Notes: a model not told the origin generated them from the sequence alone. Counted from the stretch's first letter, positions 8,031 through 15,700 are shown. The stretch is 64,000 nucleotides of DNA from Acidobacteriota bacterium (GCA_016213735.1 JACQZU010000022.1:59171-123170); one strand, 5' to 3'. Made by a program: numbers and translations.

Positions 8031-9773
8031 CTACACTTTGGCGCAGGCGGCCTTCCGGGCCCGGGCCAGGCGGAGCAGGAGGCGGACGCGGTGGCGCACC
8101 TCCTGCGCCTCCAGGGGTTTGGGAAGGCGGTCCTGGGCCTGGGCTTCCAGCCTGGCCAGGGGGCCTTCCTCGGCCTTGGCGGCGAGGAGCACCACGGGCC
8201 GATCCCCGCAGCCCGGGACCTCCCGCAGGCGCCGCAGGATGTCCCCCGGGTCCCCCAAGGAAGGATCCAGGTCCAGGGACAGCAGTTCGGGCGGCTCCTG
8301 GCCCAGGGAATCGAGGGCCTCTTCCAGGCTGGCCCCGTCCCGGACCCGCATGCCCGCAGGCTGCAGGTGCATCCTGAACTGGGTTCGCACCGCCTGGGAG
8401 GGGGAGAGGAGCAGAATGGATCCCCCTTCCGGGGGCTCGGAAGGCGGAAGGACGCCGAGCTCCAGGAGAAAGCGGATCCGCATGCGGAAGACGGCATCCT
8501 CCTCGAGCTTGCTCAGGTGGTCGTCGGCCCCCACCTGGGCGGCCCGCTCCCGCAGGTTCCGGCTCAAGGAGGTCAGGAGGACGAAGGGAATGCCGCGGCG
8601 TGCCGGATCCTCCTTGAGGCGCTGGCAGAGCGTGAAGCCGTCGATGCCCGGCATGACCACGTCGCTGAGGACCAGCTGGGCCTTGCTGCGCGCGAGGAAG
8701 CTGAGGGCCTCCGGCGCGCTGGGAACGGTTTCGACGCTGGCCTCGAGGAAGGACAGCCGCTCCGCCAGGAGGGCCCGCATGTGCTTGTCGTCCTCCACGA
8801 GGAGGACCAGGGGCCTGCCCGCCACGGGGACTCCTGCCGCCGGCGATCCCGTCCCCGCCTGGGCGATCCGATTGCGACCCGCGCCCTTGGCTTCGTACAG
8901 GCAGCGATCCGCCTCCAGCAAGAGGGACTCGGGATGACCCTCCGCCACCGGGAGGAGGGTGGCGACCCCCAGGCTCATGGACACATGCGCGGCCGTGGGG
9001 GATTTGGCGTGGGGAAGGGCCAAGGCGGCCACCGCTTCCCGGAAGCGCTCCGCCACCTGGACGGCGCCCCGAAGCTCGGTTTCAGGGAGCAGGCAGACGA
9101 ATTCCTCTCCTCCCACACGAGCCACCAGGTCCACGGGCCGTTGCAGGGATTTCTGGAGGGTCTCGGCCACGCGCTTCAGGCAGTTGTCCCCGGCGGCGTG
9201 GCCGTAGGTGTCGTTGAACAGCTTGAAATGGTCGAGATCCATCATGATCAGAGAGAGGGGTTTCTGGTTGCGAACCCCGCGCATCCACTCCTCCCGCAGG
9301 GTCTCGTCGAAGTGCCGGCGGTTGGGAATGCCCGTGAGCGCGTCCCTCACCGAGAGGCCCTTCAGGGCGTCCTGGCGGCGTTTGAGCTCCAGGTGGTTCC
9401 TCACCCGGGCCTTCACCAGAACGGGGTTGATGGGCTTCTGGAGGAAGTCGATGCCCCCCGCGGCGAAGGCACGGCTCTGGTCAGGCTCTTCTCCCAGGCT
9501 GGTGATGAACAGCACCGGGATGTCGGCGGTCCGGGTGCTGGCCTTCAGCCTCGTGCACACTTCATAGCCGTCCATGCCGGGCATCACCACATCCAGGAGG
9601 ATGAGGTCGGGCTCCTGGTCGTGGGCAACTTCCAGGGCCTCGGTCCCCGTGGTGGCGAAGAGCACCTCGTGCTCCTCCACGAGAACCTCGCAAAGGGTGG
9701 TCAGGGTGGTGGGAGAGTCGTCCACCACGAGGATGCGGCCGCGAAGCGAGGGCGCAGCGGGGTCGACGTTCAT
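8031..9773 (-). CDS. response regulator with diguanylate cyclase output, domain order REC-GGDEF-REC-(degenerate REC)
   Basis: REC (…[10 protein letters not shown]…[14 protein letters not shown]…), an active-site GGEEF preceded by an RxxD I-site (RPVD), and a second REC (…[14 protein letters not shown]…). ATG overlaps the upstream kinase stop (ATGA at 9770-9773). Confidence 0.85.
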
Positions 9774-14761: not shown

Positions 14762-15700
14762 TCAGATCCGGGTCTTCCGGGCGACGAGGCGCTCCGGCGC
14801 GGCCGCGGCCGCCATGCCCTTGTAGGCCATGTAGTGAGGACGATCCACGCCGTCGGGAAGATCCAGGGGAATCCCGGCGATGTTGCGGGTGCGGAAGAAG
14901 GGATGGGGCGGAGGGAAGTCGGGGCGGGTGCAGCCCACGCAAGGGACCCCCACGCGGGTCTTGCTGCTTCGCCGGTTCCAGAGGAGCTTGTTGCACGGAC
15001 CGTGGGTGAGGGGACCTCGGCAGCCCAGGTGGAAGAAGAGGCAGCCCCGCTGCCCGAAGTCCGCGTCCTCCACCCGGTACTCGTGGTACTCGTTCCGCAG
15101 ACAGCCCTGGTGCACCTGCAGGCCGTAGAAGTCCAGGGGGGCGTTCCACTCGTCCAGATCCGGGGCCGCGCCGGAGAGCAGGGCCGCCAGGGTCCCGGCC
15201 AGGGCTTCGCAGTGGCACGGGCATCCCGGCAGGTTCACCACCGGCAGGCCGGCCCCGGATCGGTAGGCGGTCCCCAGAAAGCCTCCGGGCTCCTCCCGAT
15301 CGAACTGCAGCCCTGTGGCCTCCACCTCCCCTGCGCCGGACACCCCTCCGAAGCTGGCGCAGGTTCCTGCGGCGATGACGAAGCGGGCCCGCCGGGCCAG
15401 GGCCGCCACGATCTCCTTCCGGGGCCGCCGCTCCACCGTGTCGAACATCCCGGTCCCGCCGGGGCCGCGGATCACGGCGCCTTCCACCACCAGCACGTCC
15501 AGGGGGCGGGCGCCGGAGGCCAGGTCTTCGACCAACTGCCGGTGCTCCCGGGCGCTTCCCCGGGACAGGGAGGGGTGCCAGAGGAGTTCGACGCCCAGGA
15601 GTTCCAGGGCCTCCACCAGGCCCGGGGCCTCAAGGTTCAGGAGGGACCAGGTGTCGCCGCCGCAGCCGCCGCCTTGAAGCCAATAGAGGGTCGAGGTCAT
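14762..15700 (-). CDS. [NiFe]-hydrogenase small subunit, cytoplasmic (no Tat signal)
   Basis: Canonical medial and distal cluster cysteines (…GTCASFGG…, …PGCPCHCE…, …HQGCLRNE…, GCLFFHLGCRGPLTHGPCNKLLWN, …GVPCVGCTRPDF…). The N-terminal motif reads GGGCGGD instead of the usual CxGC. Start at ATG 15700 (GGAG 6 nt upstream); an alternative ATG lies at 15712. Confidence 0.85.
   Translation of the reverse strand: MTSTLYWLQGGGCGGDTWSLLNLEAPGLVEALELLGVELLWHPSLSRGSAREHRQLVEDLASGARPLDVLVVEGAVIRGPGGTGMFDTVERRPRKEIVAALARRARFVIAAGTCASFGGVSGAGEVEATGLQFDREEPGGFLGTAYRSGAGLPVVNLPGCPCHCEALAGTLAALLSGAAPDLDEWNAPLDFYGLQVHQGCLRNEYHEYRVEDADFGQRGCLFFHLGCRGPLTHGPCNKLLWNRRSSKTRVGVPCVGCTRPDFPPPHPFFRTRNIAGIPLDLPDGVDRPHYMAYKGMAAAAAPERLVARKTRI

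Follow-up and report, generated by a model that had tools for sequence, protein, structure and literature searches.

A new variant of a putative H2-sensor type: an acidobacterial gene cluster pairing a cytoplasmic [NiFe]-hydrogenase with a phosphorelay kinase and a GGDEF regulator

The window, by which we mean the whole analysed stretch of 64,000 nucleotides from an Acidobacteriota bacterium, carries between positions 8031 and 15700 of its minus strand five tightly packed genes for the two subunits of a [NiFe]-hydrogenase, a maturation protease, a hybrid histidine kinase and a response regulator with a GGDEF domain. All five are present where the original prediction had placed them, and their head-to-tail arrangement was confirmed by their Pfam domains, by the junction sequences and by the coding signature found in every one of them (GC3 of 0.83-0.89 versus GC2 of 0.44-0.56). 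The genes, their domains and the neighbouring features are as follows:

14762-15700, minus strand: [NiFe]-hydrogenase small subunit, 312 aa (Pfam PF01058, 1e-21; PF14720, 6e-23)
13195-14733, minus strand: [NiFe]-hydrogenase large subunit, 512 aa (Pfam PF00374, 1e-73)
12754-13191, minus strand: HycI/HybD-type maturation endopeptidase, 145 aa (PF01750 (HycI), 2e-11; TIGR00072, 5e-20)
9770-12757, minus strand: soluble unorthodox hybrid histidine kinase (Pfam; BarA/TorS/ArcB-like by NCBIfam)
12584-12742, minus strand: 53-residue N-terminal helical motif of the kinase (gapless alignment of 68 loci and the window)
12170-12517, minus strand: GAF-fold domain of the kinase (AlphaFold and Foldseek; sub-threshold Pfam match)
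11330-12007, minus strand: kinase core, with HisKA at about 11813-12007 and HATPase_c at about 11330-11671 (Pfam; H-box SHEIRTP)
10070-11278, minus strand: phosphorelay tail of the kinase, with REC1 at 10901-11278, REC2 at 10475-10840 and Hpt at 10070-10354 (domain map; Pfam)
8031-9773, minus strand: response regulator/diguanylate cyclase, 580 aa (Pfam, three REC, 8e-54; GGDEF, 1e-51)
9357-9767, 8856-9368, 8454-8819 and 8034-8453, minus strand: REC1, GGDEF, REC2 and degenerate REC3 of the regulator, respectively (Pfam; REC residue check)
15701-15839, no strand assigned: divergent intergenic region between the small-subunit and PEBP genes, where the promoter would be expected
15840-16391, plus strand: PEBP-family gene, divergent neighbour of the small-subunit gene
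3-401, plus strand: last 132 codons of a hypX (hoxX) homologue (phmmer against C. necator HypX, E 6e-34)

From the small to the large subunit there is a gap of 28 nt, and from the large subunit to the protease one of 3 nt; the protease then runs into the kinase through a GTGA overlap at 12754-12757, and the kinase into the regulator through an ATGA overlap at 9770-9773. The kinase may start at GTG 12757, within the former overlap, or at GTG 12751, which gives a protein of 993 aa, leaves a gap of 2 nt after the protease and has a better placed GGAGG, and this second codon is the more likely start by its sequence context. The cluster is flanked by gpsA, convergent on one side, and by the PEBP gene, divergent on the other. 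Our terminator scan returned one weak stem-loop, lying within the large-subunit gene, with shuffled sequence giving more, so that the scan speaks neither for nor against a single transcript; no convincing internal terminator was found within the five-gene cluster. Given these borders, the overlaps or gaps of 2-28 nt at the junctions and the lack of a convincing terminator between them, the five genes are predicted to form one discrete operon; no sigma-70 consensus was found in the promoter scan. No electron-acceptor or anchoring subunit is encoded in the operon, in which everything beyond the hydrogenase and its protease is a signalling protein, and none of the five proteins contains a transmembrane-like segment, with the maximum Kyte-Doolittle 19-residue mean being 1.43, in agreement with the prior description of the kinase as free of such segments.

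The small subunit starts at ATG 15700 (MTSTLYWLQGGGCGGD), which agrees with the consensus start of the family and has a GGAG at 15710-15707. Its N-terminus (MTSTLYWLQGGGC) belongs to the conserved core from the first residues, leaving no room for a Tat signal, so the protein is cytosolic and the expected lack of this signal holds. In its proximal-cluster motif, GGCGGD, an Asp takes the place of the second Cys of the standard enzymes, while the distal HxxC motif is retained as HQGC; CGGD, HQGC and the C-terminal tail are all conserved across the small-subunit family, and the protein aligns end to end with HucS (E 2e-86). The large subunit, 100% identical to a protein (P0001) of an Acidobacteria MAG, keeps the His of L1 (RICGICSTGH), and after its L2 motif, SFDVCLVCTVH (RSFDVCLVCTVH), come 15 further C-terminal residues (SLRRGRPAGRLRLGT), an extension that the HycI-type protease would be predicted to cleave off. 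Of the [NiFe] cysteines all four are in place, as are the L1 and L2 signatures of H2 activation, and the conservation of both is strong. It had been pointed out beforehand that an extension with its own protease is unlike the group 2b sensors, and this is correct, yet the combination is normal for the family, given that both are present in 37 of the 70 scored loci. Among the relatives, the protease is found only where the large subunit retains the extension. The signature sites of the large subunit are 2a-like and not 2b-like (L1 His, GGQWPHxS, C-terminal extension, protease), and therefore this hydrogenase could turn over H2 at useful rates.

An additional maturation gene lies at the very start of the window, where a possible hypX-like fragment had been suspected. 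Pfam gave no match on positions 3-401; set directly against C. necator HypX, however, the fragment did match, and a Logan contig (L090) overlapping the window start carries a near full-length hypX (E 4e-182). The fragment lies 7.6 kb from the 3' end of the operon, with housekeeping genes in between, and its product is best regarded, from sequence, as a predicted accessory maturation factor and not as a member of the operon. Its presence in the window is a hint that both the assembly and the use of the sensor are oxic.

Regarding its class, the L2 motif of the window is equal to the consensus SFDxCLVCTVH that PMC4853749 quotes for group 2c, and the REC-GGDEF gene of the operon provides the genetic linkage to a GGDEF/EAL protein seen in that group, which HydDB calls "diguanylate cyclase-linked, putative", with the sensory function putative for the whole class. 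In a bootstrapped neighbour-joining (NJ) tree, neither the 2a clade (84%) nor the 2b clade (100%) includes the large subunit, and its own clade (87%) is sister to the Ideonella/Methylococcaceae-type 2c clade (100%), with the union of the two having 65% bootstrap. The L2 motif supports the predicted assignment to a group 2c type; the tree clearly separates the large subunit from 2a and 2b, with only that 65% for its union with canonical 2c. In the literature that we searched, no experimental work was found on any group 2c enzyme, or on sensing from a hydrogenase to c-di-GMP, and we consider the present system a novel form within an already recognised but putative class of H2 sensors.

The canonical group 2c systems, such as the Ideonella dechloratans plasmid locus and the Methylobacter/Methylococcaceae type, share with the window the cytoplasmic location, the SFDxCLVCTVH form of L2, the CGGD of the small subunit, the C-terminal extension with its own protease and a downstream c-di-GMP enzyme, the order in the Ideonella plasmid being small subunit, large subunit, protease and GGDEF/EAL. 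The window differs from that clade in having only 45-49% identity to it, besides the separate branch, and in that its hydrogenase is connected to GGDEF only by way of a multistep phosphorelay. The group 2b systems, HoxBC-HoxJ-HoxA of Cupriavidus necator and HupUV-HupT-HupR of Rhodobacter, follow the same logic of a hydrogenase beside a soluble histidine kinase as the input, but membership of 2b was rejected: the large subunits are only 39-42% identical and lie in separate clades, the window has His in L1 where HoxC/HupV have Gln (CGICSVSQ), the proximal site of the small subunit is Asp in the window and Cys in 2b, and in 2b, where the large subunit stops at the L2 His, there is neither the extension nor a HycI-type protease gene. 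Membership of group 2a was likewise discarded. The Huc enzyme (Mycobacterium smegmatis hydrogenase-2; PDB 7UTD, 7UUR) is the nearest solved structure (E 1e-112 for the large subunit, with the small-subunit match given above), and it shares the cytoplasmic location, the C-terminal tail of the small subunit and a processed large subunit, but it is 40-44% identical, sits in its separate clade, and has a proximal Asn (CSGN) and no distal His, whereas the window has CGGD and keeps the distal His in HQGC.

The kinase is arranged as N-terminal helix-GAF-HisKA-HATPase-REC-REC-Hpt. Pfam recovered HisKA (7e-22), HATPase_c (4e-31), the two REC domains (4e-59 combined) and Hpt (4e-8), and the phospho-acceptors are the His259 of the H-box and the His836 of the Hpt motif HTQKG, with both REC domains carrying the canonical D/E-D, D, T and K residues; H-box, HATPase, receiver Asp and C-terminal Hpt with HxxKG are thus all present, as in unorthodox hybrid kinases, and as had been expected. 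The GAF domain, also called in advance, was sub-threshold in Pfam (E 0.05, with the whole profile spanned), and it was the AlphaFold model (pLDDT 75.5) that settled it, since its top Foldseek matches in the PDB are all GAF domains (3ci6, E 1e-6); in addition, the region is 31% identical over 99% coverage to P0223, a protein with the motif-GAF-HisKA order. In the regulator, the anticipated REC-GGDEF-REC-REC order was recovered by Pfam together with a GGEEF active site and an RxxD I-site (RPVD) five residues upstream, the canonical spacing, and NCBIfam gave a PleD-like match (5e-108). REC1 and REC2 carry D/E-D, D, T and K, which brings to four the REC domains of kinase and regulator with full residue sets, while in the last, degenerate REC S, P and A stand in place of D12, D13 and T87. 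By these motifs, the regulator is predicted to be an active, feedback-regulated PleD-like diguanylate cyclase, and since all catalytic and phospho-acceptor residues are present, we count the relay as intact.

At the N-terminus of the kinase lies a conserved 53-residue motif, with the consensus L..EN..LR.EIRVAR.AAEITA.LVV.QFE.TE..L.R, for which neither Pfam nor NCBIfam has a model. In the AlphaFold prediction, residues 3-76 of the kinase form a helix with a pLDDT of about 90, and the window departs from the consensus at one position conserved at 90% or above, where Thr is changed to Ala in EIAAKL. Each of 68 loci contains exactly one match, always in the ORF after the hydrogenase, and an exhaustive representative search found the motif in only 214 clusters among 1.84 billion protein representatives, being N-terminal in nearly all of the 150 clusters listed among those 214. 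A word-indexed protein search with the motif alignment gave 16 short gene fragments, of which three were used for context checks starting from the motif, and all three proteins lie just downstream of [NiFe]-hydrogenase genes (large subunit, then protease where called). Among 76 proteins, the motif is fused to HisKA in 61, PAS in 39, GAF in 16, GGDEF in 7, SpoIIE in one and Pkinase in one, and some of the kinases, as well as cyclases of 240 residues, have no other sensor domain (helix-HisKA, helix-GGDEF). HoxJ, the 2b kinase, does not have the motif, and it is also absent from the Ideonella-type GGDEF/EAL protein. A generic coiled coil was rejected on account of the invariant Glu and Gln residues, the gapless register, the rarity and the strict occurrence of one per locus by the hydrogenase; binding of the motif to the large-subunit extension was also rejected, because the motif is kept in seven loci without extension or protease (L033, L038, L046, L047, L050, L053 and L059). 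We propose the helix as the putative hydrogenase-coupling module of the kinase.

The pairing recurs in the comparison set of 80 related loci. Of these, 67 have 1.5 kb or more of sequence downstream, and in 65 of the 67 the next gene after the hydrogenase encodes a kinase or a GGDEF protein; they come from more than ten phyla, with large-subunit identities of 45-64%. The original prediction was to fail if the kinase and GGDEF genes were not conserved beside the hydrogenase in homologous neighbourhoods, and this came out half true: the kinase is conserved, but a GGDEF output is present in just 17 of the 45 informative motif-bearing loci (38%) and is missing from the nearest relatives by large-subunit sequence. 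The conserved partner is therefore the transducer and not the cyclase, which is optional. Most of the related loci have no gene for a redox partner or acceptor either, and the 2a loci have no adjoining signalling genes. This pairing across phyla and the restriction of the motif to that one position are observed directly, as are the gene content, the motifs, the tight packing and the family placement.

The HoxBC-HoxJ sensor complex of group 2b is the precedent for sensing by a hydrogenase and a kinase together, HydDB itself predicts a sensory role for 2c, and by gene context it is, in our judgement, rather probable that the operon encodes an H2-sensing complex feeding a phosphorelay that controls c-di-GMP. 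That the kinase docks by its helix, that H2 is the signal and that phosphate moves in a given order is what we infer, as follows. The cytoplasmic [NiFe]-hydrogenase, matured by the general Hyp machinery, HypX and its own protease, would be the input module, physically coupled to the soluble hybrid kinase via the N-terminal helix, which continues into the GAF domain and the helix of the DHp. Depending on H2, the hydrogenase would take on a different redox or conformational state, and this would alter kinase autophosphorylation; the phosphate would then pass from His259 to a kinase REC Asp, to His836 of the Hpt, and to REC1 and/or REC2 of the regulator, so that the GGEEF diguanylate cyclase, and hence c-di-GMP, would be controlled by the phosphorelay, with the RxxD I-site providing product feedback.

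It is unlikely that the hydrogenase is instead mainly a catalytic cytoplasmic uptake enzyme like the 2a Huc, with its acceptor encoded elsewhere and the two-component genes sensing another cue via the GAF domain. Huc is indeed the nearest solved relative, the L1 His, the C-terminal processing and the dedicated protease are retained as they are not in the 2b sensors, the nearby HypX suggests maturation in air, as in aerobic H2 oxidisers, and the kinase does have a GAF domain of its own. Against these features stand the absence of an acceptor or partner gene from the operon and from most related loci, the many related transducers with no sensor domain besides the helix, the occurrence of that helix only beside such hydrogenases, and cluster ligands that differ from those of Huc (proximal Asp versus Asn, with the distal His kept).

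We also regard as improbable a hydrogenase that senses a signal other than H2, such as O2, CO or redox, via its [NiFe] site or FeS chain, with the GAF domain perhaps integrating a second ligand. The Asp that the family conserves, unusually, as second ligand of the proximal cluster and the O2 exposure implied by HypX would suit such a role, and no sequence feature specifies H2 as the physiological cue, but neither the four [NiFe] cysteines nor the L1/L2 signatures have been lost, their conservation is strong and, to our knowledge, the only characterised hydrogenase-based sensors, those of group 2b, sense H2. Finally, a reverse flow, in which kinase and regulator govern how the hydrogenase works, is assembled or is expressed, for example via c-di-GMP, and the helix is a chaperone-like or tethering element in maturation, would agree with the single ORF that joins protease and kinase at two loci (L001 and L078) and with the hypF and hypD genes that come after the kinase in two others (L052 and L070), but it is very hard to sustain, since the helix persists in the seven loci without extension and protease and is contiguous with the DHp or GGDEF signalling helices, as is typical of input stalks.

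Returning to H2 sensing through the transducer, the helix may be, with about even chances in our estimation, an undescribed hydrogenase-docking input module that marks out, among the sensory [NiFe]-hydrogenases, a large subgroup reaching across phyla, linking one H2-sensing core to kinase, GGDEF, PP2C and Ser/Thr-kinase outputs. If so, "group 2c" would be a general H2-input device and not specifically a c-di-GMP system, with the helix-GGDEF proteins of 240 residues as its minimal form and the phosphorelay of the window as an elaborated one. The conserved helix also offers a handle for experiments, and by its sequence such systems could be traced in genomes.

Microbes make wide use of H2 as an energy currency, and the only H2 sensors that we know to be understood are the 2b HoxBC/HupUV of a few Proteobacteria, which merely switch hydrogenase genes on. 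Should the present class sense H2, the H2 of the surroundings would act on c-di-GMP, and on outputs by other second messengers or by phosphorylation, in many lineages, among them Acidobacteria, Planctomycetes, Desulfobacterota, Myxococcota, Nitrospinota and Elusimicrobiota, and through these outputs it would influence biofilm formation, motility and the choice of lifestyle. The window is a well-preserved example of this class, hypX included.

In its output, a diguanylate cyclase, the window differs from the NtrC-type activator of 2b and resembles other known relays, since PleD and WspR, together with BarA, ArcB and TorS, share with it the His-Asp-His-Asp relay, the GGEEF and the RxxD I-site; the best NCBIfam matches are PleD for the regulator and BarA (1e-158) for the kinase, both below the equivalog cut-offs. 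Unlike BarA, ArcB and TorS, the window kinase is soluble, linked to a hydrogenase and has no transmembrane segment, and the regulator carries two extra C-terminal REC domains, one of them the degenerate one, whereas the REC-GGDEF proteins at related loci have about 305 residues.

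The putative diguanylate-cyclase-linked [NiFe] hydrogenases, or group 2c, have been predicted as a class since 2016, and no experimental work on them was found in the literature searched. The operon at window 8031-15700 is a sound member of this class, and the overall interpretation of the original prediction, an H2-to-c-di-GMP system of HydDB group 2c, was supported. Beyond the known description, the link to the cyclase is indirect, through a phosphorelay, and the conserved partner of the hydrogenase, across the loci compared here, is the transducer and not the cyclase.

All five genes named were confirmed as real by a strong third-position GC bias in their ORFs, in a window of high GC content (~69%), and by clear Pfam matches:

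Small subunit, minus strand, start ATG 15700: PF01058 and PF14720
Large subunit, minus strand: PF00374
Protease (HycI endopeptidase), minus strand, 12754 on its 3' end side: Pfam match
Hybrid kinase (transducer), minus strand: HisKA, HATPase_c, two REC, Hpt
N-terminal helical motif of the kinase, 12584-12742, minus strand, beginning three residues past the likely start codon: no Pfam model
Regulator, minus strand: REC, GGDEF, additional REC stretches

The junctions also stood, with gaps of 28 nt (small to large subunit) and 3 nt (large subunit to protease), followed by the overlaps GTGA at 12754-12757 and ATGA at 9770-9773. We would preferably place the kinase start at GTG 12751, two codons downstream of the one first proposed, because GGAGG lies five bases upstream of that codon; the tight gene packing holds with either start. 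ATG 15700, the family consensus start, has GGAG six bases upstream and leaves no space for a Tat signal in the small subunit, as had been claimed, and no TM-like segment was found in any of the five proteins. The gene cluster is a discrete unit, its 3' end lying 272 bp from the convergent gpsA, which is preceded by plsY, and its 5' end ~140 bp from a divergent PEBP-family gene. In the operon region, a consensus promoter scan found no promoter, and a search for stem-loops gave a single weak one, inside the large-subunit gene, where shuffled sequence gave more; these sequence scans give no sign of a transcriptional split, nor positive support for a single transcript.

The large subunit is 100% identical to an Acidobacteria MAG protein (258-kb contig). 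The nearest solved structures are both subunits of the mycobacterial Huc (group 2a, Huc/cyanobacterial type; E 1e-112 and 2e-86), and because of this the enzyme can be assigned to the group 2 cytoplasmic [NiFe] hydrogenases. The group 2c L2 consensus, as quoted in PMC4853749, is the same as the SFDVCLVCTVH of the window. A reference set was assembled from annotated plasmids, in which group 2b (the HoxBC/HupUV regulatory type) was represented by C. necator HoxC and Acidovorax HupV, 2a by Mycobacterium, Runella and Bradyrhizobium enzymes, and the canonical 2c layout by the Ideonella dechloratans locus (small subunit, large subunit, protease, GGDEF/EAL), and neighbor-joining trees with 100 bootstraps were built from these references and 80 genome loci picked by large-subunit similarity.

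Neighbor-joining clades, with bootstrap support and identity of the window's large subunit to their members
2b: bootstrap 100%; identity 39-42%
2a: bootstrap 84%; identity 40-44%
Ideonella/Methylococcaceae/Thiobacillus: bootstrap 100%; identity 45-49%
Window's clade: bootstrap 87%; identity 47-64%
Union of the window's and Ideonella/Methylococcaceae/Thiobacillus clades: bootstrap 65%

With the L2 motif equal to the quoted consensus and a position outside the 2a and 2b clades, the group 2c assignment held, qualified by the support of only 65% for the union with the Ideonella clade. The signature sites agree with this placement: 2b has Gln at the L1 site where the window keeps His; the window also keeps GGQWPHxS; the 2b large subunit stops at the L2 His, whereas that of the window carries a C-terminal extension; and at the proximal cluster of the small subunit the window has Asp (CGGD, within GGCGGD at ~15650-15670), where 2b has Cys and 2a/Huc has Asn. 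The second-ligand Asp occurs in ~95% of the small subunits of the window's family (the 80 loci) and also in the Ideonella clade; it may serve to diagnose 2c and hints that the proximal cluster is of an unusual kind. Unlike Huc, which is without the distal HxxC motif, the window small subunit keeps it.

The extension and the protease had been considered atypical for a sensor, and this stands only in relation to 2b, where both are absent. Among 70 scored loci, the extension was accompanied by an adjacent protease in 37 and stood without one in 26, while seven loci had no extension and none of these a protease; every protease-bearing locus keeps the extension. Both are thus traits of the family and no anomalies. 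The seven extension-less large subunits (L033, L038, L046, L047, L050, L053 and L059) end exactly at the L2 histidine, and, being also protease-less, parallel the protease-independent maturation of the 2b sensors. In two other loci, L001 (11487-13586) and L078 (the ORF after the large subunit), HycI and a histidine kinase share a single uninterrupted ORF, which is either a genuine fusion or a lost stop codon; one representative from the motif search likewise joins HycI with the motif.

Profiles seeded with the window's own proteins served to map domains on six-frame ORFs from all 80 loci. A kinase or a GGDEF protein directly follows the hydrogenase (and protease) in 65 of 67 loci with at least 1.5 kb downstream, and fuller layouts were counted where at least 5.5 kb was available.

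Layouts among 52 loci with at least 5.5 kb downstream
N-terminal motif present: 45
Motif and histidine kinase: 41
Motif and kinase with Hpt: 16
Motif, kinase and REC-GGDEF, as in the window: 14
Motif fused straight to GGDEF: 3

The conservation expected for both the kinase and GGDEF genes thus stood for the transducer but not for the cyclase, c-di-GMP being a visible output in 17 of the 45 motif-bearing loci (38%). One locus (L017, 5700-7109) has a REC-SpoIIE (PP2C phosphatase) regulator as an alternative output, and many related kinases carry two or three terminal receivers in clusters that encode no output domain. By large-subunit sequence, the nearest relatives of the window are from Holophagales and Acidobacteria MAGs, and these contain the kinase without Hpt or GGDEF; the window's cyclase motif is nonetheless similar to the one in the recurrent cassette of kinase-Hpt and REC-GGDEF. 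Hosts include Acidobacteria, Planctomycetes, Myxococcota, Desulfobacterota, Nitrospinota, Elusimicrobiota, Actinobacteria, Alpha- and Betaproteobacteria, Riflebacteria and other phyla.

The N-termini of these downstream proteins align gaplessly over 53 residues, with the consensus xxxxxxLxxENxxLRxEIRVARxAAEITAxLVVxQFExTExxLxRL, in which a single Glu and a single Gln never vary, conservation reaches at least 90% at the Leu, Arg, Thr, Val-Val and Phe positions, and the columns average 56% identity. The window has Ala at position 28 (12659-12661) vs. Thr in at least 90% of relatives (EIAAKL vs. EITAxL), and His-Ala-Ala in place of the usual Arg-Val-Ala. Conserved positions recur at intervals of three to four residues along a single face of the predicted helix; with invariant polar residues among them, they would point to a specific interface and not to a generic coiled coil. 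Searched against ~12,000 six-frame ORFs, the motif profile gave a single matching ORF in each of 68 loci and in the window, always directly after the hydrogenase genes; the 12 of 80 loci without a match comprise three that are short downstream, eight of the Ideonella-type clade or 2a, and one basal locus (L039). By the same profile, the 2b kinase HoxJ and the Ideonella GGDEF/EAL protein are also without the motif. An exhaustive HMMER search of 1.84 billion representative proteins returned only 214 clusters at E <=1e-3, and in nearly all of the 150 matches listed the motif begins within about the first 30 residues. Three of three proteins retrieved by the motif only, on long contigs, lay immediately downstream of hydrogenase genes, separated from the large subunit by just the protease (where called) or unannotated small ORFs. 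The helix, for which Pfam and NCBIfam have no model, is apparently undescribed so far, and marks a large clade, spread across phyla, that is separate from the canonical GGDEF/EAL-linked one.

The element following the helix differs, being the DHp helix, a PAS or GAF domain, or GGDEF directly. Among 76 full-length matches we counted HisKA in 61, REC in 43, PAS in 39, Hpt in 20, GAF in 16 and GGDEF in 7, besides single cases of SpoIIE, a Ser/Thr kinase domain and a fused HycI. Helix-GGDEF-only proteins of 240-285 residues, having GGEEF with an I-site, occur in L048 (4854-5576), L069 (11076-11795), L065, L066 and L068, directly after the hydrogenase genes and, in four of these five loci, after the protease; they seem to be the simplest systems in which to test H2-to-c-di-GMP signalling. 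A practical organism for studying the class is the cultured isolate Ideonella dechloratans (plasmid NZ_CP088082, 466725-472426), whose small subunit, large subunit and protease genes are followed by that of a 900-residue GGDEF/EAL protein with, by eye, an N-terminal coiled coil and a possible PAS-like region.

Pfam and residue checks agreed with the proposed architecture of a soluble GAF-HisKA-HATPase-REC-REC-Hpt kinase and a GGEEF regulator with an RxxD I-site at PleD spacing. The Pfam GAF match (E 0.05) is below normal thresholds, yet covers the whole profile. Kinase residues 1-271, modelled with AlphaFold (mean pLDDT 75.5), comprise a long N-terminal helix (3-76), an alpha/beta domain (81-196) and a long helix into HisKA; the GAF call is supported because the best PDB fold matches of this model are GAF domains throughout (e.g., 3ci6, E 1e-6) and the nearest full-length relative of this region, a Chloroflexota protein, has Pfam-recognised GAF and HisKA. 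The phosphorelay elements are intact, with the H-box SHEIRTP, the Hpt motif HTQKG, and a complete acidic pocket, phospho-Asp, Thr and Lys in both kinase receivers and regulator receivers 1 and 2. The third regulator receiver is probably a pseudo-receiver, because Ser, Pro and Ala replace three of its five key residues.

The best-supported reading is a hydrogenase-kinase sensor complex, in which the hydrogenase would be the input module, the conserved helix, docking on it as we infer, would be the coupling element running on into the kinase signalling helices, and a His-Asp-His-Asp relay would set cyclase activity. This is favoured over a purely catalytic role because a redox-partner gene is absent, a transducer is paired with the hydrogenase near-universally, some transducers are without any other sensor domain, and the helix is confined to the post-hydrogenase position. 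The enzyme may well also turn over H2, since its signature residues resemble 2a rather than 2b, and both roles are not mutually exclusive. From the intact [NiFe] ligands and the 2b precedent, H2 is presumably the cue of the sensor complex, and may either raise or lower c-di-GMP. The locus is unsurprising in principle, and gives a concrete, testable entry to the question of how bacteria sense H2 and how widely they do so.

HypX supplies the CO ligand under oxic conditions. The hypX-like fragment suspected at the window start was confirmed: positions 3-401 of the plus strand (132 codons), for which Pfam gave no match, match the C. necator HypX C-terminus (E 6e-34), and an overlapping Logan contig, L090 (2-1699), encodes 565 residues aligning end-to-end with that protein (E 4e-182). 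Given that role, the homologue supports a putative aerobic maturation of the hydrogenase. The homologue ends in an overlap (GTGA, 398-401) with the first codon of an EamA transporter gene, and it lies 7.6 kb from the operon 3' end and ~14 kb from the hydrogenase structural genes, with EamA, pyruvate kinase, cinA, plsY and gpsA between it and the operon. No other hyp genes were found in the 64-kb window; among the related loci, hypF directly follows the kinase/receiver genes in L052 (14227-17681), together with hypD, and in L070 (5939-8212). A REC and HD-GYP-type (PF13487 HD_5) regulator at 33209-34303 (plus strand), ~23 kb from the hydrogenase-linked cyclase, could be a c-di-GMP phosphodiesterase. 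Nothing ties this regulator, or the several other sensor kinases in the window, to the operon; the plus-strand stretches 24520-29010, 41502-43826 and 44624-46624 are signalling-rich, with a 1496-residue many-PAS hybrid kinase, a Ser/Thr kinase with TPR repeats and a second PAS hybrid kinase.
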